DNA of 10,448 nucleotides from a virus. How positions within the stretch are numbered: the first letter of the stretch is position 1; every line of letters begins with the position of its first letter. Shown here piece by piece: positions 1 through 10,448 of the stretch. Position numbers and translations under genes: made by a program. The notes under the pieces were generated by a model. That model saw only the letters and a program-made list of their open reading frames with translations. It was not told the origin of the DNA and did no database searches. The DNA lies in the UHGV virus genome UHGV-0227753. One strand, given 5' to 3'.

Positions 1-1563
1 ATCTTTCGGTGTTAATGTTATATCCGCAGTCAGTGCTTTCCCGTTAACTTTTCGGTTAGATGGTACCCTGCCATTCGCATTGTCATTCGCTGCTTTAACT
101 GCCTTCGGTGTCGCGGCAAGCGTTTCAGATGTGCTGTTGGTTGCACTACTGAGCTGGACTATCCCCTTTTTCGTCGTGCTCGCATCCTCAAGCGCCACGG
201 CGGATGCAATATCCTCTGCCCGTTTTGCCGCTGTCTCAGCGCGCGTTGCTGCGGATTCTGCCGTACTTTTGCTCTGTGCTGCCGCCGTCGCACTGCCAGC
301 AGCCTCTGTTGCCTTCGTGGATGCCGTCGTGGCGCTGCCCTTCGCTGCTGACGCCTGTCTGGTCGCCTCATCTTTTGAAGCAGACGCCGATGAGGCCGAT
401 GACGCCGCCGAACTGGCGGACGATGCGGCAGCCGTTTTTGAGGATTCTGCGCTGGTTTCCGACGCTTTCGCGTTCGTTTCGGATGTCTTCGCTGCGGAAG
501 CTGACCTCGCTGCTGCGCTGGCCTGTTCAGTGGCTTCGCCAGCCTTCGTTGTGGCTGTTGAAGCGGATGATGCGGCGCTTTCTGCCGATTTTCCGGCGGC
601 GATGGCACTGGCTGAGGCCTGCCCGGCACTTGTTGACGCGGCACTGGCAGACGACGCAGCCGCTGTTTTTGAGCCTGCCGCAGCTGAGGCGCTCTGTCCC
701 GCTGCCGTCTCAGAAGACCTGGCGTTCGTCTCGGACGTTTTTGCCGCCTTCGCGGAATTTGCTGCCGCCGTTGCCGAGGAAGCTGCGCTGCTGGCGCTCG
801 AGGATGCGTTCGTTTCTGATGATTTTGCCGCCTCTTTTGAAGCCGACGCATCCCGGGCTGAGGTGGCAGCTTCTGACGCTTTCGTAGTCGCGGTGGATGC
901 AGAAGTGGCTGCTGATTGTTGTGACGCTGCAGCATTCGTTTCTGACGTTTTCGCGGCACTGGCACTGGTAGCTGCCGCGCTTTTTGAGGACTCTGCAGCG
1001 GCAGCACTTTTTTCCGCTTCAGTGGCCTTTGTTGATGCCGTTCCTGCGCTGGAAGACGCTGACTGAGCCGACGAAGCGGCCTGTCCGGCTGACGTGCTGG
1101 CTGCGCGTGCTGAGCCTGCAGCATCAGTCGCATGGGTTGCCGCCTCACGGGCAGATGTGCCGGCATCGCCGGCTGACTTCTTCGCGGCTGCCGTGTTCTG
1201 TGCCACTGCGGACGCGTTACGCGCCACCTCTTCCACCATCAGTTCAAAACGTCGCAATGCCTCCGGACGGGCATCATCCTCCGTCATGGCACCGAGAAAA
1301 TCATTCAGCGTACCGGGTTGAGAATCTTCATACACGGTGATGGTCCCGGCATGTGACGGCGGGAATCCCTCCACCAACAGAATAACGCTGTACTGACCGT
1401 ACTCAACGTCCATGCTGTAACGCCCGGCTTCATCCGGATTTTCTGAGGCCAGCGTGTTCACCACCACCGTGGTGCTGTTACGTTTTGCTTTCAGCTGGAT
1501 TGTGCAGTTCTGTACCGGTTTTCCTGTGCCGTCTTTCAGTACACCTGAAATCTTTACTGCCAT
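1..1563 (-). CDS. stf: Side tail fiber protein Stf, N-terminal ~521 codons; 3' end continues beyond window position 1
   Basis: Hand translation of the minus strand from ATG at 1563..1561 gives MAVKISGVLKDGTGKPVQNCTIQLKAKRNSTTVVVNTLASENPDEAGRYSMDVEYGQYSVILLVEGFPPSHAGTITVYEDSQPGTLNDFLGAMTEDDARPEALRRFELMVEEVARNASAVAQNTAAAKKSAGDAGTSAREAATHAADAADSARAASTSAGQAASSAQSASS..., matching the lambda Stf N-terminus as I recall it. The same frame (codons at plus positions 3k+1..3k+3) has no stop in the segments I checked (1..360 and 1051..1563), and 121..360 reads ...RQASAAKGSATTASTKATEA...AGSATAAAQSKSTAESAATRAETAAKRAEDIASAVALEDASTTKKGIVQLSSATNSTSETLAATPKAVKAANDNANGRVPSNRKVNGKALTADITLTPKD. It is absent from the ORF track only because its stop lies outside the window. 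Confidence 0.9.
   Translation of the reverse strand, partial: MAVKISGVLKDGTGKPVQNCTIQLKAKRNSTTVVVNTLASENPDEAGRYSMDVEYGQYSVILLVEGFPPSHAGTITVYEDSQPGTLNDFLGAMTEDDARPEALRRFELMVEEVARNASAVAQNTAAAKKSAGDAGTSAREAATHATDAAGSARAASTSAGQAASSAQSASSSAGTASTKATEAEKSAAAAESSKSAAATSASAAKTSETNAAASQQSAATSASTATTKASEAATSARDASASKEAAKSSETNASSSASSAASSATAAANSAKAAKTSETNARSSETAAGQSASAAAGSKTAAASSASAASTSAGQASASAIAAGKSAESAASSASTATTKAGEATEQASAAARSASAAKTSETNAKASETSAESSKTAAASSASSAASSASSASASKDEATRQASAAKGSATTASTKATEAAGSATAAAQSKSTAESAATRAETAAKRAEDIASAVALEDASTTKKGIVQLSSATNSTSETLAATPKAVKAANDNANGRVPSNRKVNGKALTADITLTPKD
240..1200 (-). repeat. Low-complexity Ala/Ser/Thr-rich repeat region inside stf, with imperfect direct DNA repeats
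   Basis: Imperfect direct repeats of the form GCRTTCGTYTCBGAYGTYTTYGC at about 471..495, 723..746 and 932..956 on the plus strand. On the minus strand they encode the recurring Stf peptide motif (KTSETNA-like). High GC and Ala-codon bias leave long open frames in several wrong frames on both strands. Boundaries are approximate. Confidence 0.6.
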
Positions 1564-1574
1564 ATTCACCCCAC

Positions 1575-1600
1575 AAAAAAGCCCGCCTGAACCGGCGGGC
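1575..1600 (-). terminator. Intrinsic (rho-independent) terminator-like hairpin between lom and stf
   Basis: Minus-strand sequence GCCCGCC-GGTTCA-GGCGGGC followed directly by TTTTTTG: a 7-bp GC-rich stem, 6-nt loop and T-run, 4 nt... more precisely the stem is plus 1581..1600 and the T-run is the plus A-run at 1575..1580. It lies 27 nt downstream of the lom stop and about 11 nt upstream of the stf ATG. Confidence 0.6.
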
Positions 1601-1627
1601 TGTCATAACACTGTGTTACCTGGCTAA

Positions 1628-2227
1628 TCAGAACTTATAACCGACACCCACGATGAAACCGTCAGTGCGCCAGTCGCCACTGCCGGAGCCTTCATAAGCA
1701 ATATCAATGGCCACGGACTCGGTCGGGTTAAACTGCACGCCAGCCCCCCACGCCAGAGACGTGTTGCTGTGGCGACCGTCATCACTTCCGGTCAGCACGT
1801 CGTGCGTTTTCCCCTTGTTGTCAGTTACGCGGAGATAATCCCCGGAGAAAGTCGACACACGGCTGTAAGCCATACCCGCCATCGCATACGCGCTGAACCA
1901 TTCATTCACGCGCACAGACGGCCCCACCATCACGCTGAACCAGCGGTTACGCACGGAATCTTCATGCCAGCGGGTATCGCTGTAACGGGTAAGCTGGCGA
2001 TTCTTGTCTCCTGCATAGCTGAATGACGTCACCAGCCCCAGTGTGTCCGTAAACTCATAACGGTATTTCACGTTAATCCCGTTAAGATCATCGCTGCCGG
2101 GAACGTTCGTCGAGGCATGAAGATACCCCGCGCTCAGCGTGGACTGATGTTCAGATGCCCATGCAGGCGCACCGGATACGGCCAGACAAATGGCTGCGGA
2201 CAAAATGGCGGCATAAAGTTTACGCAT
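1628..2227 (-). CDS. lom: Lom outer membrane protein (Ail/Lom/PagC family beta-barrel), lambda-type moron
   Basis: 199-aa [33 protein letters not shown]...[10 protein letters not shown], near-identical to lambda Lom as recalled. N-terminal signal peptide with an AWA-SE cleavage site and a C-terminal aromatic residue (…GYKF) typical of outer-membrane beta-barrels. A GAGAGG Shine-Dalgarno sits about 5 nt upstream of the ATG. Position between J and stf matches lambda. Confidence 0.95.
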
Positions 2228-2251
2228 AATTACCTCTCGCTTTTCTGCAAT

Positions 2252-2275
2252 AAAAAAGGCACCATTTCTGGTGCC
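2252..2275 (-). terminator. Intrinsic terminator-like hairpin downstream of J, upstream of lom
   Basis: Minus-strand GGCACCA-GAAA-TGGTGCC followed by TTTTTTATT: 7-bp stem (plus 2258..2264 and 2269..2275), 4-nt loop, T-run (plus A-run 2252..2257). It lies 21 nt after the J stop codon (2297..2299). Confidence 0.6.
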
Positions 2276-2296
2276 CTTATATGGGTTATAACAATT

Positions 2297-5200
2297 TCAA
2301 CGAATACTGATGCCGGAAGCGGCTTTTTTGGTCACAATCACCGTACAGTCGGTGATATTACCTGCCCACTGATTGCCTTTATGGAAAACCTTAAACTCCA
2401 GAGTGACGCTTCCCCTGCCACTCGGCATATCAATAACCGCACTGTAGCTACCGGGAATGGCCCCTTTAGTTTCTCTGGATGCGATTAATACACCGTTTTT
2501 GCGAACTTCAAAACCATAACCCGTGTATCTTGTACCTCCCGGGTTATTACCACTTCCCGGATCGCTATACGCTATTCCGTTAAAGATAATGGGCGGAATA
2601 ATGATTTGACGGTCAAAGTTATGATCATCGCTGATGGTGACTGTAACCGTCCCGTTTGGTGTTTCCGTGTTACCCCACGTACCAGCCTGTTTCGGAAATG
2701 ATTTGGATACAGCTTTAACGAAGTCACCTCTGACCTGAGTCGCCTCCAGCATGCCCTTAATCGTACAGTTTTCATTTACCGTGACATTGTTGAGCGTCCC
2801 GGCGTTCGCATTCACACTGCCACTGATATCCGCATTTTTAGCGGTCAGCTTTCCGTCTGATGTCAGGGAAAATACCGGAGGACTGCCACCACTGGTAATG
2901 GTGGGAGCCGTCAGGCGCTTCAGGAACACGTCGTTCATGAATATCTGATTGCCCTGCGCCACAAACATCGGCGTTTCATTCCCGTTTGCCGGGTCAATAA
3001 ATGCGATACGGTTAGCGGCAACCAGAAACTGACTCAGTTTGCCTTCCTCCGTGTCCTCCATGCTGAGGCCAATACCCGCGACATAATGTTTGCCGTCTTT
3101 GGTCTGCTCAATTTTGACAGCCCACATGGCATTCCACTTATCGTTGGCGTCCTTCCACTCTTTCGAAAACTCCTCCAGTCTGCTGGCGTTATCCTCCGTC
3201 AGCTCGACTTTTTCCAGCAGCTCCTTGCCGAGATGGGATTCGGTTATCTTGCCTTTGAAAAAATCCAGGTAACCTTCCGCATCATCGCTCGCCCGACCGA
3301 CGGCCTCCACGAATGCCGATTTGCCAACGGTGTTCACACTGCGGATATAAAAGTAATAATCATGGCCCGGTTTGATATTGATACTGGCGGCTATCCAGTA
3401 CAGCGCCGTGCCAAGATAGCGGGCTGTGGTTTCAACCTGCCTGATATCCGCAATCCGCTTTTCCGAGAACCAGAACTCAAACTGTACCGTCGGATCATAA
3501 ACGGCAAGATGCGGCGTTGCGGTTATCTGAAAATAGCCCGGCGTCAGCTCAATCCGCGACGGTGCTGCCGGTGCGGCAATCCGGAACGATACCGATGCCG
3601 GATCGCCCTGCTGCCCCCAGGCATTTGCCGCCCGGACTGTCAGCCTGTAGTTTCCCAGCGCCAGTTGCGTGAAGCGGTATGTGGTTTCCGTCGTCCGGGC
3701 CGTGCTGACCAGCCGCTCACTGCCGTCATCCGCTGTTACGGTCAGACGGAGCAGGAAGCTCACGCCCTTCACCACCTTCGGCGTGTCCCAGCGCGCCAGC
3801 ACCTGATATTCCCCGCTGTCTGCGGTGACTTCGGCGGTCAGGTGCTGCACCGCTGGCGGCGTGACACCATTCACCGTGCCGCTCTGGTCGCCGTCAAAGT
3901 GCGCCCCGTTATCCACGATGGCTTCTTTTTCCGGTACATGCTGCACGGCGGTGATGGCATACGTGCCGTCATCGTTATCACGGATACTCACACAGCGGAA
4001 CAGGCGCTGACGCAACGTCGGCAACTTCAGCCCCCACACACTGTATTCTGCAACGCCGTCAGGAACCCGGTTCACTTTCACCTTAAGTCCGTCGGTGACG
4101 GACTGAACCTCCACGCTGACCGGATTACCACTTCCGTCAACCAGGCTTATCAGCGTGGTACCGGAGGATGGCAGCGTGATTTCACGGTCGAGCGTCAGCG
4201 TCCGGGTCTGGCTGTTTACCGCCAGCACGCGCCCGCCGGTGCGGATACCGGCATAGTCATCATCACAGATTTCAATGACATCGCCCGGTACATGGCGAAG
4301 CCCTTCTGCGCCCACGCTGAAGTCCACGGTCTGCGTTTCCAGCAGTTCTGTTTTAATCAGCCACAGCCCGGCGCGGTGTGCCTGCCCCCGGCTGGTACAG
4401 CCAAAAGCATCCATCTTCGTGACGTTACGACCGTAACGGGCAATGGCCTGCGTGTCCTCCACAAGCTCTGTTGCCGTCTCCCAGCCATTGTCCGGGTCAA
4501 TCCAGTTCACCTCAACGGCATTATGGCGGTCCTTCAGGGCGCTGAAGCTGTAGCGGAACGGCGCGCCATCATCCGGCATCACCACATTACTGCGGTTATA
4601 GGTCCACACCTTATCCGACGGTCGGTCCTGCACGAACGTCAGCGTCTGCCCGTTCCATACCGGCATACAGCGCATCGCCGAGCAGAAATCACTGAGCACA
4701 TCCCACGCCTTGCGCTGCGTGGTCAGCCAGGCATTACAGGTGATGCGCGGCTCCGTGCCGCCAAAGCCGTCCGGCACCGACTGGTCGCAGTACTGGCCGA
4801 TGACATACAGCGCCCATTTATCCACATCCGCCGCACCAAGACGTTTCCCCATGCCGTAGCGCGGATGGGTCAGCATATCCCACAGACACCAGGCCGGGTT
4901 GTTGCTGTATGCCGGTTTTAACGTTCCGTCCCAGATACCGCTGTATTGCCGCGTCTGCGGGTTATAGTTCGACGGCACCTGCAGAATGCGCCCGCGAAGA
5001 TGATAATTACGGCTCACCTGCTGGCTGCCGAACTGCTCCGAGTCCACCTGCACGCCGACCAGTACCGTGTTCGGGTAGCACTGTTTCACATCGATGATTT
5101 CGGTGTATGACGACCAGAGCGTTTTGTTCTGCAGCTGGTCTGTGGTGCTGTCCGGCGTCATCCTGCGCATCCGGATATTAAACGGGCGCGGCGGCAGGTT

Positions 5201-5710
5201 ATCCACCACCACCGAGGCCAGATACTGCGACGTGGTTTTGCCCTTAATGGTGATGTCTTTTTCCGTCACCCAGCCACCGTTACGTTGTATCTGAACCAGC
5301 AGGCGGACTTCCGACGGATTCCGGTCACCCTTTGAGGTGGTTTCCACCAGTGCCTGCACACCGAAGGTAAAGCGCAGACGGTCGATGTTTGCAGACGTGA
5401 TGGTCCGGGTAATCGGCGTGTCGTACTTCACTTCCGTACCCAGCACCGTCTCGGAGCCGGAGGATTCAAATCCCTCCGGCGGTGTCTGCTCCTGCTCACC
5501 TGCCCGGAAAACCACCGTGACACCGGAGATATTGGTATTCCCCTCACTGTCCAGCACTGGCGTACTGTTCAGCAGCACACTTTTTAATCCGTCCACCGGA
5601 CCTTCAATCGGCCCTTCACTGATGGCGTCTATCACGCTCAGCATCTGGGATGATTTCAGGTTGTCCTTCGCTTCGCGCGGGGTATGCCCCTTACTGCTGC
5701 CTTTACCCAT
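2297..5710 (-). CDS. J: Tail tip attachment / host specificity protein J (central tail fiber)
   Basis: 1137-aa ORF starting [54 protein letters not shown]..., collinear with and near-identical to lambda J (1132 aa as recalled) over roughly the first 1000 residues. Position after I and before lom matches lambda. The C-terminal ~100-160 residues do not match the lambda sequence I recall. Confidence 0.97.
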
Positions 5711-5732
5711 TCCTCACGCTCCAGAAACGACA

Positions 5733-5752
5733 AAACCGCCCTGAGGCGGTTT
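5733..5752 (-). promoter_or_regulatory. Stem-loop in the 60-nt I-J intergenic spacer (possible attenuator or RNA stability element)
   Basis: Plus AAACCGCC-CTGA-GGCGGTTT: an 8-bp stem with 4-nt loop. On the minus strand it is followed by a U-rich stretch (TGTCGTTTCTGG) and then the J start region. Function is not established from sequence alone. Confidence 0.25.
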
Positions 5753-5770
5753 CACATAAAACGTTTTTCA

Positions 5771-6442
5771 TCAACGACCAATCACCACAACCTGACCACC
5801 GTCCCCCTCGTCTGCCGTGCTGATCTCCTGAGAAGCCACCCGCGACCCCACGCGCATTTCACCGTACAGAACAGGCAGAACATTGCCCTGGGCAACCATG
5901 TTATCCAGTGAGGAGAAATAGGTGTTCTGCTTACCGTTATCCGTTGTCTGTGTACGGGGAGTTCTAGCTTTCGGTGCCAGCATCTGCGCCACACCACCAA
6001 GTACCATACTGGCACCGAGAGAAAACAGGATACCGGTCATACCACCGGCCCCAATGGCTGCCCCCCATGCTGCAAGGGTGGCTCCGGCAGTAAAGAATGA
6101 TCCGGCAATGGCGGTAGCCCCCAGAACAATCTGGAATACGCCCCCTGACTTGGCCCCGGCGACTCTGGGAACAATATGAATCACAGCGCCGTCAGGCAGA
6201 ACCTCATGTAACTGCGCCGTCAATCCGGACGTGCTGACGTCCCGCCCGGCAATCCGTACCTGATACCAGCCGTCGCTCAGTTTCTGACGAAACGCCGGGA
6301 GCTGTGTGGCCAGCGCCCGGATGGCTTCAGCCCCCGTTTTCACACGAAGGTCGATGCGGCGGCCAAATCGTTGTAAATCCCCGTAAAGGCAGATGCGCGC
6401 CATGCCCGGTGACGCCAGAGGGAGTGTGTGCGTCGCTGCCAT
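5771..6442 (-). CDS. I: Tail tip assembly protein I
   Basis: 223-aa ORF MAATHTLPLASPGMARICLYGDLQRFGRRIDLRVKTGAEAIRALATQL...VVVIGR; length and sequence match lambda I as recalled. Its start overlaps the 3' end of K by 103 nt in a different frame, as in lambda. Confidence 0.95.
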   Translation of the reverse strand: MAATHTLPLASPGMARICLYGDLQRFGRRIDLRVKTGAEAIRALATQLPAFRQKLSDGWYQVRIAGRDVSTSGLTAQLHEVLPDGAVIHIVPRVAGAKSGGVFQIVLGATAIAGSFFTAGATLAAWGAAIGAGGMTGILFSLGASMVLGGVAQMLAPKARTPRTQTTDNGKQNTYFSSLDNMVAQGNVLPVLYGEMRVGSRVASQEISTADEGDGGQVVVIGR

Positions 6443-7083
6443 TTGTCGGTATACCTCTCTCGTTTGCTCAGTTGTTCAGGAATATGGTGCAGCAGCTCGC
6501 CGTCACCACAGTAAATGGCGGCATGATTCGGCACCGATGAACCAAAACAGCACAGCAGCACATCGCCCGGTTGTGCTGATGACAACGGCACCTGATACAG
6601 CCCTGTGGCCTCCAGATTATCCAGATAGAGATTCTGACCGTGACGCCACCAGTCATCCCCGCGATGAAAATCCGGCATCTCAATCCCCGCCAGATGATAA
6701 GCATCCCGGAACAGCGTGTAACAGTCCGTCACCCCGTGCTCAAAGCGCCGCCCGGTAAGATGTGGCACACAGCGGAACTTGTAAATCGCCCCCCGGCAGA
6801 CCAGCCACCACGGCAAATCACTCTGCACCTGCAGCCGCCGATCGGCCTCACTCAGCCAGGGCAGACCACCGGGGTGACTGTGGACCAGCGCCACAATCTC
6901 ACCCTGCATCTCTGCCCGCAGCCAGTCCTCCGGCGACATCCGGAAATACGCCTCCGGCTCACCGGAGATATTCACGCAGGGAAAATATCTTTCCCCCTTC
7001 GGCGTTCTCACCACGAAGCCACACGACTCCGCTGGCGCACATCGCCGGGCGTGCGCCAGAATCGCTGATTCTGTCTCTGTCAT
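6340..7083 (-). CDS. K: Tail tip assembly protein K (MPN/JAB + NlpC/P60 two-domain protein); start ambiguous between 7083 and 6939
   Basis: Stop at 6340. The classical lambda-style start (MSPEDWLRAEMQGEIVALVHSHPGG..., 199 aa) is the ATG at 6939..6937 and has a GGAGG about 11 nt upstream. The frame stays open upstream, and an in-frame ATG at 7083..7081 (MTETESAILAHARRCAPAESCGFVV..., 247 aa) lies 4 nt after the L stop. The HSHPGGLPWLSEAD segment fits the JAMM H-x-H-x7-S-x2-D metalloprotease motif. Confidence 0.9.
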   Translation of the reverse strand: MTETESAILAHARRCAPAESCGFVVRTPKGERYFPCVNISGEPEAYFRMSPEDWLRAEMQGEIVALVHSHPGGLPWLSEADRRLQVQSDLPWWLVCRGAIYKFRCVPHLTGRRFEHGVTDCYTLFRDAYHLAGIEMPDFHRGDDWWRHGQNLYLDNLEATGLYQVPLSSAQPGDVLLCCFGSSVPNHAAIYCGDGELLHHIPEQLSKRERYTDKWQRRTHSLWRHRAWRASAFTGIYNDLAAASTFV

Positions 7084-7087
7084 GGGA

Positions 7088-7786
7088 TTACTGCGAAAGT
7101 TTGTTAATGGAAAGGAAGCCGCCAAAGTTGCCGACATTATTGCGAAACTTACAGCCACTCAGGCATTTACTGCATTTATCTTTCGTGATATCGGACGTCG
7201 GCTGGTCATATTCATCCGCGACAGCCGGACCGCTATAACCGCACTCATCACCGCGATAGGTCCAGGTACAGGTGTTGGCCAGCATGATGCGCCCCGGAAA
7301 AACAGCGCCATCCGTTTCCGTCGGCGTGGACAGTACAAAAGAGGCGCTCACCGCGCTCAGTTCGCTGCACTGCTCGATGCGCCAGCGGCTGATCACCTCC
7401 TGCTCCGGATCGGCATCGCTATTTCCGTTGACGAAGTTCACCGCATCCAGAAAACAGGCGTAAACCTTACGCCTGACCACCGTTCCTCCGACCAGACTCT
7501 GCAGGTCTTCCGCCATCCCGGTGACCATGCCGTGCAGATTAGAGACTTTCAGCGTTGGCCTTGCACTGGCTCCTTTGCCGTTCATCTCAAATCCACTTCC
7601 CTGAATGGGATAGGCCTGATACTGCCGCCCCTGCCAGGTGACTGGTTCACCTTTTTCGTTCTGCTCATTACAGAAGAAATAACGATCTCCGCCGACCTCT
7701 GTCAGATCGATTTCCCAGAGCACCACGCTGGCAGACTGCTCCGCACGGGTGCATTCATTCAGTGTTTCCTGTCGGATATTCTGCAT
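7088..7786 (-). CDS. L: Tail tip assembly protein L
   Basis: 232-aa ORF MQNIRQETLNECTRAEQSASVVLWEIDLTEVGGDRYFFCNEQNEKGEPVTWQGRQYQAYPIQGSGFEMNGKG...SINKLSQ; length and sequence match lambda L as recalled. Cys-rich C-terminal region. Its ATG (7786..7784) overlaps the M stop (TGATG). Confidence 0.95.
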   Translation of the reverse strand: MQNIRQETLNECTRAEQSASVVLWEIDLTEVGGDRYFFCNEQNEKGEPVTWQGRQYQAYPIQGSGFEMNGKGASARPTLKVSNLHGMVTGMAEDLQSLVGGTVVRRKVYACFLDAVNFVNGNSDADPEQEVISRWRIEQCSELSAVSASFVLSTPTETDGAVFPGRIMLANTCTWTYRGDECGYSGPAVADEYDQPTSDITKDKCSKCLSGCKFRNNVGNFGGFLSINKLSQ

Positions 7787-8115
7787 CAGTTCACCACCTG
7801 TTCAAACTCTGCGCTGAACTCAACACGCAACATACTGACCCGCGACGACCATTTTGCGCAGGTCACCTTTATCTGCCGGTAGCCATAAGGCGGCGTCCAC
7901 AGAAAGGCCTTCCAGCCCCCGTGCTCAGCCAGAAACGATTCCAGTGCCGTGGCCTCCTCGCGGGGAACAGAAAGCGTCACGCTGTACGTTTTCAGGTCAG
8001 CGTTCAGCCCGGCAGGCGCACGCTGAGAATAGCCATCACCAAAGCGCACCTTTATTACGGAAGGGGCCGAAGCCACATCCATACCGGGTTTCACTTTCCA
8101 GCGGAAGGTTTTCAT
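7786..8115 (-). CDS. M: Tail tip assembly protein M
   Basis: 109-aa ORF MKTFRWKVKPGMDVASAPSVIKVRFGDGYSQRAPAGLNADLKTYSVTLSVPREEAT...EFEQVVN, matching lambda M (109 aa) as recalled. A strong GGAGGTGG Shine-Dalgarno lies just upstream. Its start overlaps the H stop in an ATGA arrangement. Confidence 0.95.
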   Translation of the reverse strand: MKTFRWKVKPGMDVASAPSVIKVRFGDGYSQRAPAGLNADLKTYSVTLSVPREEATALESFLAEHGGWKAFLWTPPYGYRQIKVTCAKWSSRVSMLRVEFSAEFEQVVN

Positions 8116-10448
8116 CGTCCACCTCCGGAGAACAGACCACCATCACGGGACTGCTGTTGCATAAAGTCCGCTGCTGCTTTTTTCCCGAGGTCATAAACCA
8201 CCTTCAGGGCAGCCGGACCTATCTGCCCGTTCGTGCCATCGTTATTGATCTCGATGTTGTACTGCGGGGCAAACATCGCCATACCTGAACCACCAATATC
8301 CGCCACAACCCCCAGCTTACCGTCAGCACCACGACGCAGAGGCAGAATGGCTTCAGGCCCAGCTTCCCCCATCACACCTGCACCTTTTGCAAAAGCAAAA
8401 AACGTCGGACGGTTAACCACCGTGCCACTGTAGCGACTCAAATCAGCAGACTGATAAACACCACCATCAGCATTGGGCGTCACACTGGCAGTTGCTGCAC
8501 TCCCCCAGCCAAACGCCGAACCAATCCCCTTAACTGCCTGCATCATGGACATCTGAGCCATGATTTTTGCCAGATCAGAAAGGAGCGAGGCGGTAAAAGA
8601 TTTGAAGTTCAGTTTTCCGGTGGTACAGAATGTAGCCAGTGCATTACCTGCACTATTAAATGCCGCTGTAAGCATCTGCTCCGCAGTGCCTGCCGCATTA
8701 TCCGCATCTGCCGTGAAATTCTGAAACGCCCGCATGGCACCGTTTTTCCAGTTACCCTGAGCAATTTCAAGCTGTTGCCAGTAACGGCGATTCTCATTCA
8801 GTTGCCTGTTCAGGCTCTCCGTCAGCGCCTGCTCGGCCTTTCTGTAGTCATCCGTGTTATATGTCCCTTTCTGCTCACTATCCCGCCTCAACTGCTCCAG
8901 CTGTTGCTGGTATTTCTGGCGAAGGCTCAGTTGTACCTGATATCGCTGCCGCTGCTGATCACCCATACCCACCGTGGCGATATCCAGGTCATGTTGCTGA
9001 CGCTGAGCGCGCTCTTCTTCAGCCAGTTGACTGGTCAGCTGAATTGTTTTTTTCTTCAGATCGTTGAGTGCCGTCTGTTTCTGAAGCTCCTGCTGTTTTA
9101 CATCCAGCAGCGTCAGTGCCTGAATCAGTTCATCTTTACGGGCCAGCACACTCTTTTCATCTGCCGTCAGTTTTTTCCCGTCCAGGTCGCTGATGCGCTG
9201 CTGCAGAGCCAGAAGCTGTTTATGCGCTTCTGTCATCCTGTCAGTGGCAATGCCTGCTGACTGTCTGGCAGCAGCAATCTGTCCTTCCACCTGTGCCTGT
9301 TGCTGGCTGTACTGCAGCAATAACCGGGTGGCCTCATCATTACGGGTTTCGCGTGTTTTTTTCTTACCGGATGCCAGGGCTTTCTCGTAACGTTCATTTT
9401 CACGTTGTATCGCCGCATCCCTGACAGCCTGATCGGCGTACTGCATGGCATTAATACGCGCAATTTCACGCTGATGTCGTGCTGCTTCCGTTTCATTCAT
9501 CCGGTTCAGTGCAGCATTTTCAGCATTACGGCGTTTCTGTTGCTCCTGATAATTCCGCTCTGCCTGCTCTTTTGCATCCTGCAAATCCTTCTGGCGTTTT
9601 TTCTCCTGAAGCTCGTTAAGACGCTGCTGATCGTATTCAACCTGAGAAGATGATGCCGTCCAGGGGAGTCTTTTCGCCCGCGATACTTTCTCCTGCAAAG
9701 TGGCAATCTGCGCATCCAGCGAATCTTCACGACCAATATTCATGGCCGCATCCCAGAACTGCTTCCACCAGTCAGACAAGGTTTGCAGCGTACTACCCAG
9801 CGCATTGAGGTTATTATCAATATCCGCAGTACGCCGACCGGTTTCCTCTGCCAGTGCAGACATGGCTATCCGTGCCGCATCACTGGACCGCCCCTGCTCT
9901 CCAAGGATGCGTATCTGCTCAAGCTGAGTGGCAGTAAGAAAATGCAGCTCATTGTCCAGAGCCTTCGCGGCATTTACAGGATCATCCTTCAGCCGCTTAA
10001 ACTGATTTATGGTATCGCTGATCGACTGGCCAACCGATCGCTCCATCTGTGCGGCAGCTCTCGCCACCATACCGATATCGTTTCCACGAAATGCACCACT
10101 CCCCACCACCTGAGCCAGCGCACCGGCTGCAGCATGTTGCGTGATACCATTCCCGGAAATAGCACGACTGAGCGTCCACAGCTGCCCGGCAGTGACTCCG
10201 GCATAATGCCCCGTCAGCGACAGCTGGCGGTTAAATTCTTCCCCCTCCTTCTGACCGTCATACCAGGCTTTACCCAGACCATAGACGGCCGCGGTAATAC
10301 CGCCAATAACCCCGCCCAGCATCATGCCTTTCGGTGACATCAGTGTGTCTATCCATCCGGCACGGTTAGCCAGCGTTATCCCGGATCCCCTCAGCGCCCC
10401 TAAATTGCCGCGGGCCAGTTCACCTATCAGAACGCCTATCTCCTGGCG
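8112..10448 (-). CDS. H: Tail tape measure protein H, C-terminal ~778 codons; 5' end lies beyond the window end
   Basis: The frame is open from the window edge (10448) to the stop at 8112..8114; I checked 10341..10448 by hand and found no stop. The track start at 10340 is an internal Met. The C-terminus ...NNDGTNGQIGPAALKVVYDLGKKAAADFMQQQSRDGGLFSGGGR matches the lambda H C-terminus as recalled. The body is a long Q/E/R/K-rich predicted coiled-coil typical of tape-measure proteins. Position immediately upstream of M matches lambda. Confidence 0.93.
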   Translation of the reverse strand, partial: RQEIGVLIGELARGNLGALRGSGITLANRAGWIDTLMSPKGMMLGGVIGGITAAVYGLGKAWYDGQKEGEEFNRQLSLTGHYAGVTAGQLWTLSRAISGNGITQHAAAGALAQVVGSGAFRGNDIGMVARAAAQMERSVGQSISDTINQFKRLKDDPVNAAKALDNELHFLTATQLEQIRILGEQGRSSDAARIAMSALAEETGRRTADIDNNLNALGSTLQTLSDWWKQFWDAAMNIGREDSLDAQIATLQEKVSRAKRLPWTASSSQVEYDQQRLNELQEKKRQKDLQDAKEQAERNYQEQQKRRNAENAALNRMNETEAARHQREIARINAMQYADQAVRDAAIQRENERYEKALASGKKKTRETRNDEATRLLLQYSQQQAQVEGQIAAARQSAGIATDRMTEAHKQLLALQQRISDLDGKKLTADEKSVLARKDELIQALTLLDVKQQELQKQTALNDLKKKTIQLTSQLAEEERAQRQQHDLDIATVGMGDQQRQRYQVQLSLRQKYQQQLEQLRRDSEQKGTYNTDDYRKAEQALTESLNRQLNENRRYWQQLEIAQGNWKNGAMRAFQNFTADADNAAGTAEQMLTAAFNSAGNALATFCTTGKLNFKSFTASLLSDLAKIMAQMSMMQAVKGIGSAFGWGSAATASVTPNADGGVYQSADLSRYSGTVVNRPTFFAFAKGAGVMGEAGPEAILPLRRGADGKLGVVADIGGSGMAMFAPQYNIEINNDGTNGQIGPAALKVVYDLGKKAAADFMQQQSRDGGLFSGGGR

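Follow-up and report, generated by a model that had tools for sequence, protein, structure and literature searches.

The C-terminal end of protein J encoded in the window (the whole 10,448-nt stretch of viral DNA that was analysed) is assigned by alignment to the phage-434, or h434, class of J receptor-binding domains. Our overall explanation, to which we give a probability of about 0.82, is that this end was acquired by recombination along with the neighbouring lom gene, was overlaid by a tract shared with Stx prophages, and would form a tip that binds OmpC. The best matches to the window are E. coli chromosomes, with up to 98.6% identity over 98% of the window length, which identifies it as prophage DNA.

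Gene J occupies window 2297-5710 on the minus strand as an ORF of 1137 codons (1137 aa plus stop in the ORF list and translation), and its product is the tip attachment protein, or central tail fibre. The interval singled out by the first-pass annotation of this DNA (2297-2790) is the 3' end of this ORF, and the translation ends exactly in the 106-residue peptide quoted there. Six Pfam domains were detected above curated cut-offs, in the order FNIII-A_GpJ, Phage-tail_3, Ig_J, Ig_J_second, Phage_Tail_Tip and Ig_GpJ_C, and this full series ending in Ig_GpJ_C places J, by homology, among the lambda-type tip attachment proteins. The tail genes lie on the minus strand in the order H-M-L-K-I-J-lom-stf with ORF sizes as expected, and the window is colinear with both lambda and 434 (Table 1).

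Table 1. Features of the window, listed from the right-hand edge to the left.
Feature	Window position	Strand	Basis
H	8112 to past window edge (8112-10448 within the window)	-	ORF list, translation
M	7786-8115	-	ORF list
L	7088-7786	-	ORF list
K	between L and I	-	ORF list
I	5771-6442	-	ORF list
J conserved part, residues 1-960 (hub domains, FNIII/Ig domains, fibre shaft)	2831-5710	-	97.3% aa identity to lambda, 98.6% to 434; dN/dS 0.07-0.09
J transition zone, residues 961-1000	2711-2830	-	begins in a conserved 18-residue stretch, then lambda identity decays; 70% aa identity to lambda
J receptor-binding domain, residues 1001-1136, assigned to 434 class	2303-2710	-	PF12421 Ig_GpJ_C; 34% identity to lambda, 94.9% to 434
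Tract 100% nt identical to O157 Stx1a/Stx2c prophages, roughly 400-600 nt	2301-2900	-	identity profile, 100-nt bins
Block without megablast-level lambda similarity (J end, spacer with terminator, most of lom)	1756-2742	-	pairwise blastn/megablast
Terminator-like hairpin and T-run between J and lom	2255-2278	-	pattern scan; terminator annotated in the same place in 434
lom (Ail/Lom outer-membrane beta-barrel, 199 aa), 434 type	1628-2227	-	PF06316 Ail_Lom E 1.4e-119, profile positions 1-199 of 199
Terminator-like hairpin and T-run after lom	1580-1601	-	pattern scan; terminator annotated at that position in 434
stf N-terminal 521 codons	1-1563	-	ORF list, translation

Some features of the surrounding genes deserve brief mention. 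The H frame comprises 779 codons without a stop and is open to the right window edge; a reading of H as a shortened tape measure, suggested by a listed 742-aa ORF, was rejected because the window edge merely truncates the gene. Its last ~46 codons (8112-8250) are lambda/434-like and the remainder corresponds to the 1024-aa tape measure of phi458; by this comparison a second mosaic joint lies in H near window 8250, and because most of H has the phi458 match, the tail is probably longer than that of lambda. At the other edge, the N-terminal codons of stf include a long Ala/Ser/Thr-rich low-complexity stretch, the stf region carries long ORFs on both strands (80-1066 on plus, 159-1166 on minus), and parts of it match lambda stf at 80-87%, with additional sequence at about window 350-655. 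Tandem Repeats Finder detected no DNA tandem repeat in the Ala/Ser-rich N-terminal region of stf. Antisense to J runs a 611-aa ATG-initiated ORF (window 3086-4921, plus strand), whose counterpart in lambda has 564 aa (6436-8130, minus strand); codon composition probably accounts for it as a shadow ORF.

The J end aligned with lambda and 434

Over its whole length, J is 89% identical to the lambda reference (J02459). Residues 1-960 agree with lambda J at 934 of 960 positions (97.3%), as expected from the first-pass annotation, which had described the first ~1000 residues as close to lambda. That annotation had also called the ~55 residues preceding the last 106 only partly lambda-like, and residues 976-1031 are 50% identical (28/56). 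For the last 106 residues (1032-1137), said not to resemble lambda, the alignment yielded 36 identities in 112 aligned columns (32.1%); the low identity stands, but the dissimilarity was overstated, given that domain family and fold are shared. When residues 973-1137 are aligned as a unit, identity is 38.6%, with indels. Neither an identity above 90%, at which the claimed divergence would fall away, nor the high identity to lambda J over about residues 970-1132 that would mark the lambda (LamB-binding) class was seen in the pairwise alignment.

The same transition is visible in the nucleotide sequence, where identity to lambda in 90-nt steps is 91-100% up to J nt 2880, 85.6% over nt 2881-2970 and 39-65% thereafter, and where megablast similarity of J to lambda stops at window 2743. 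The drop from 97% to 39% identity is far beyond chance. A phmmer comparison of the J end with lambda gpJ chains gave a full-length alignment (E about 1e-39), and PF12421 Ig_GpJ_C, described as a "C-terminal receptor binding domain", matched J residues 1001-1136 (90.9 bits, E 9.4e-26). Because of these two matches, we regard the diverged J end as a divergent allele of the same domain as that of lambda, not as an unrelated module.

A search with the whole window brought up phage 434 and lambda h434 imm21. The J protein of phage 434 (OL657226) likewise has 1137 aa and is 98% identical to the window J without gaps. Within residues 973-1137, where lambda falls to the value given above, 156 of 165 positions (94.5%) are identical to 434, also without gaps. 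There are 23 amino acid differences between the two proteins in total, of which 10 lie in the last 170 residues and 9 in positions 973-1137. The h434 allele has been a textbook host-range module since the 1970s. It is the classic J host-range allele of lambda-434 hybrids (PMC9119081). The first-pass annotation had pointed to the mosaic J alleles known among lambdoid phages, and the allele found here is one of these, that of phage 434.

Extent, spread and fine structure of the 434-type block

Pairwise blastn and megablast comparisons matched lambda to window 2743-8250 and 655-1755, and matched 434 continuously over window 1214-8250. The non-lambda block does not end at the J stop codon but runs to about window 1756. 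The Lom protein encoded within it is 99.5% identical in amino acid sequence to that of 434 versus 45% to that of lambda. Note that the number of terminator-like hairpins is not above that in shuffled sequence, and hence the two listed in Table 1 draw their support from conserved position only. It was also observed that lom and the J end share one non-lambda block and may be co-inherited; we know of no functional link between them.

To place the allele among its relatives, the 165-aa end was compared by tblastn with 50,697 phage records. Among the 243 records recovered, 74 show at least 90% identity and 169 less than 60%, and no phage record falls between 60% and 90%. The lower classes lie at about 47%, 46%, 43%, 42% and 39% identity, the 39% class being lambda itself, and the lambda, 434/window and A8 ends are mutually about equidistant (38-46% identity). 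The plaque-forming phages Ayreon and PhiR49_1, with E. coli K12 and ECOR13 as their respective recorded hosts, carry an identical 165-aa end, and this end occurs on different J backbones, namely the 1137-aa J of 434 type and the 1165-aa J of Ayreon and phi458. Megablast finds the 494 nt from the 3' end of J in 2114 of the 5426 complete E. coli genomes (about 39%), with 610 records at 99% identity or more. The sharp boundary, the discrete allele classes and the 434 allele itself agree with the swapped C-terminal receptor-binding module that the first-pass annotation had proposed. It was right about the module swap but missed the h434 identity and the co-travel of lom.

A shaft segment at about 2976-3213 on the minus strand (J residues ~833-912) lacks a megablast counterpart in the J of phi458 and Ayreon (1165 aa), with flanks that are 93-100% identical, and by this comparison it represents a further exchangeable J segment. 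Some proteins (P0002, P0008, P0055 and P0060) carry the J end fused to unrelated N-terminal sequence, which in one case is the stf N-terminus joined to the last ~60 J residues; these probably reflect errors of assembly or gene calling, or else remnants of rearranged prophages. Searching the protein database with the 165-aa end brought up mainly fragmentary or chimeric proteins, which served only for within-class polymorphism and for the alignment behind the structural model described below.

A shorter tract is nested within the 434-type end. In 100-nt bins, identity to 434 is 89-92% within window 2401-2800 and 98-100% on both flanks, and against prophage Stx2c_PV98-693 it is window 2301-2900 that is 100% identical, the rest of J being less similar. 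The 494 nt at positions 2297-2790 are 100% identical in 27 Stx1a/Stx2c phage records among the matches listed and in phage Perceval. In comparison with 434, dS is 0.30-0.32 in the receptor-binding region versus 0.10 in the rest of J, with dN/dS values of 0.09 and 0.07-0.09, respectively. A dN/dS of 0.09 indicates that the receptor-binding domain is functional and constrained. We read the tract as an older sub-allele introduced by short recombination, which is under purifying selection and carries no sign of recent adaptive change.

Within the 434 class, represented by 27 cluster representatives, polymorphism recurs at positions 970, 978, 980, 1004, 1008, 1009, 1019, 1049, 1097, 1099, 1108, 1110 and 1115, with several alleles at 1049 (S/D/T/E) and at 1115 (G/R/W). 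The window states V1108, H1110 and W1115 are rarer ones, and W1115 is found in 3 of the 27 representatives.

Predicted fold, receptor and rival readings

An AlphaFold2 monomer model was built for J residues 941-1137 from a shallow alignment of 12 sequences and has a mean pLDDT of 78. Block means are 79-95 at model residues 61-190, which span most of the beta-rich C-terminal domain, and fall to 57 at residues 51-60 and 45 at residues 191-197. A Foldseek search against the PDB gave four clear top matches with E values of 1e-15 to 1e-16: 9wca, 8xck, 8xcj and 9wcb. These entries are A8 gpJ in the closed state, the lambda fibre in the closed state, lambda gpJ bound to LamB, and A8 gpJ bound to OmpC of EDL933, respectively. 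Because the top matches include both LamB-bound and OmpC-bound gpJ, the J end is predicted to adopt the fold that is common to both kinds of gpJ end; structure prediction, put forward in the first-pass annotation as a check, thus recovered the gpJ receptor-binding fold. A PDB sequence search with the J end likewise brought up A8 gpJ (9wca, E 6e-49) and lambda gpJ (8xcj/8iyk, E about 1e-39).

Of the 7 differences from 434 that fall within the Pfam domain, 4 map to predicted loops or turns (S1004, N1019, R1099 and W1115), and the remaining 3 (positions 1008, 1009 and 1049) are modelled in short strands beside loops. Three loop regions of the class carry indels relative to lambda, the loop at about residues 1051-1058 being six residues longer, and the A8 end likewise has a longer loop at this place.

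Several published observations bear on the receptor. Lambda given the 434 J gene has its binding redirected to OmpC, the receptor used by 434 (PMC3509688; PMC11101478), a point for which PMC3509688 cites Fuerst and Bingham 1978. Hantke 1978, as it appears in the reference list of 10.1101/2022.09.30.509847, names protein Ib as the 434 receptor, and a further study takes the central fibre of 434 to target OmpC, with its loops modelled on that porin (PMC12502783). A search of a literature library for receptor data on phages with the identical end (Perceval, PhiR49_1, phi458, mEp332 and others) found no relevant paper there. From the literature on 434 and from the identical end in Ayreon and PhiR49_1, we consider that this J variant probably uses OmpC rather than LamB; we stop short of certainty because porin use in lambda is known to change with small numbers of substitutions in J, a few point mutations being enough to add OmpF as a receptor (PMC11101478). 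The first-pass annotation had argued that a receptor other than LamB was implied, which fits a 434-type end, since OmpC is the published receptor of 434 and lambda h434 and we infer the same here.

For lambda, cryo-EM has shown that the trimeric C-terminal domains of gpJ reach into the LamB trimer with four loops, whereupon the distal ends of these domains spread apart; this spreading twists the beta-prism shaft, flips a helical segment and releases the FNIII strings, and the hub then opens (PMC11101478). The J protein of the window very likely follows the same opening relay, because its N-terminal 960 residues are 97% identical to those of lambda. In the scheme that we propose, a 434-class end would have been gained by homologous recombination in the conserved stretch at J residues ~950-970, together with a 434-type lom, and the shorter tract shared with O157 Stx1a/Stx2c prophages would later have overwritten part of this end. 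The J trimer would serve as the central tail fibre, its three C-terminal Ig-like domains docking on a trimeric outer-membrane porin that for this allele class is most likely OmpC, not LamB. Porin binding would spread the domain tips, and the movement would pass up the fibre until the tail tip opens for DNA ejection.

One can ask whether the nested tract has shifted specificity within the 434 class, so that the range of OmpC variants recognised by this J differs from that of 434 (O157-type against K-12-type, for instance) or an additional porin is used. The 9 residues at which this J departs from 434 between positions 973 and 1137, several of which are modelled in loops or turns and one of which is the rare W1115, are compatible with such a shift, as are the recurrence of class polymorphism at 1004, 1008/1009, 1019, 1049, 1099, 1108/1110 and 1115, the complete identity of the tract to O157 Stx1a/Stx2c prophages, and the finding that the natural OmpC-binding gpJ ends A8 and 1A2 accept different OmpC variants (PMC11338833). 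Nevertheless, we consider this reading unlikely, for a dN/dS of 0.09 combined with a high dS of 0.30 looks like an old constrained variant and not like recent adaptation, and the occurrence of the identical end in Ayreon (K12), PhiR49_1 (ECOR13) and O157 prophages suggests broad use. If it were true, Stx prophages could adjust their host range through short recombination patches within one allele class.

The two other readings that we weighed dispense with module exchange or with function. Window matches to E. coli chromosomes (prophages), along with the many database matches to the J end that are fragments or chimeric partial proteins, would suit a decaying prophage remnant whose J end has no remaining receptor function, yet the J frame is unbroken over its 1137 codons, M, L, I, lom and both terminators are likewise intact and follow the lambda order, and purifying selection and the presence of the identical end in isolated phages also speak against decay, which makes this highly improbable. 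Still less credence, indeed next to none, is given to divergence in place from a lambda-like end by point mutation accelerated under diversifying selection. Such selection commonly acts on receptor-binding domains, and the end remains homologous to that of lambda at 39% identity, but the change in identity is abrupt, the block takes in a non-coding spacer and lom, the classes are discrete with none of the 243 phage records at 60-90%, and dN/dS within the class is 0.09; identical ends on different J backbones (434; Ayreon and phi458) contradict it outright. The preferred reading therefore remains acquisition of a 434-class end by recombination, with a Stx-prophage tract laid over it and OmpC as the probable target.

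Comparison with known systems

The h434 allele, modular exchange near residue 964, the receptor and the structures of sister classes have all been published already, and nothing here is new in kind. The J end predicts the porin that a lambdoid phage needs, and a 434-class label, with its probable OmpC dependence, helps in predicting host range and in reasoning on how Stx prophages with the identical tract spread. Beyond annotation the importance is slight, the finding being real but ordinary for a class carried by about 39% of complete E. coli genomes. The Stx-prophage tract within the class does raise a modest question about fine-tuning to OmpC variants, and solved structures exist for both LamB-binding (8xcj) and OmpC-binding (9wcb) relatives.

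The closest known system is phage 434 J and its lambda h434 derivative (OL657226, OM418627), with which the window shares the J length of 1137 aa, 98% identity, a 434-type lom downstream and terminators in the same places. It differs from 434 in the tract of ~400 nt (2401-2800), which is 89-92% identical in nucleotide sequence to 434 and 100% identical to O157 Stx prophages.

Compared with the lambda J-LamB system (8xcj, 8xck, 8iyk), domain order, residues 1-960 (97.3% identity), Pfam family and Ig-like fold are the same, and trimer-on-trimer docking and opening are presumed to follow the same mechanism, whereas the receptor-binding region is 34-39% identical with indels and the receptor reported for the 434 class is OmpC, not LamB.

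The A8 gpJ chimera on EDL933 OmpC (9wca, 9wcb; PMC11338833) carries the end of a natural E. coli prophage gpJ that uses OmpC, fused to lambda J at residue 964 (PMC11338833). It is the best PDB match of the window J end both by sequence (E 6e-49) and by fold (Foldseek E 1.8e-16), and its fusion point lies in the same junction region as that of the window J. A8 nevertheless represents a different allele class, with 46% identity from residue 973, 41.7% from residue 1001, and a C-terminus (...KKSTAGISIS) unlike that of the window. The possibility that the J end is itself one of the published OmpC-targeting ends, A8 or 1A2, was accordingly rejected, given the endings ...KKSTAGISIS and ...KKATAGITIS in the supplement (PMC11338833) and the 42-46% identity of the A8 chain.

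Finally, the central fibre of phi330, an EHEC siphophage (PMC12502783), is also a lambdoid J-type fibre. Its OmpC dependence was established with a Keio ompC deletion strain and complementation, in a paper that compares it with 434 and lambda (PMC12502783). It differs from the window J in forming a further allele class, judging from the published identities of 35-40% among the lambda, 434 and phi330 domains (PMC12502783).
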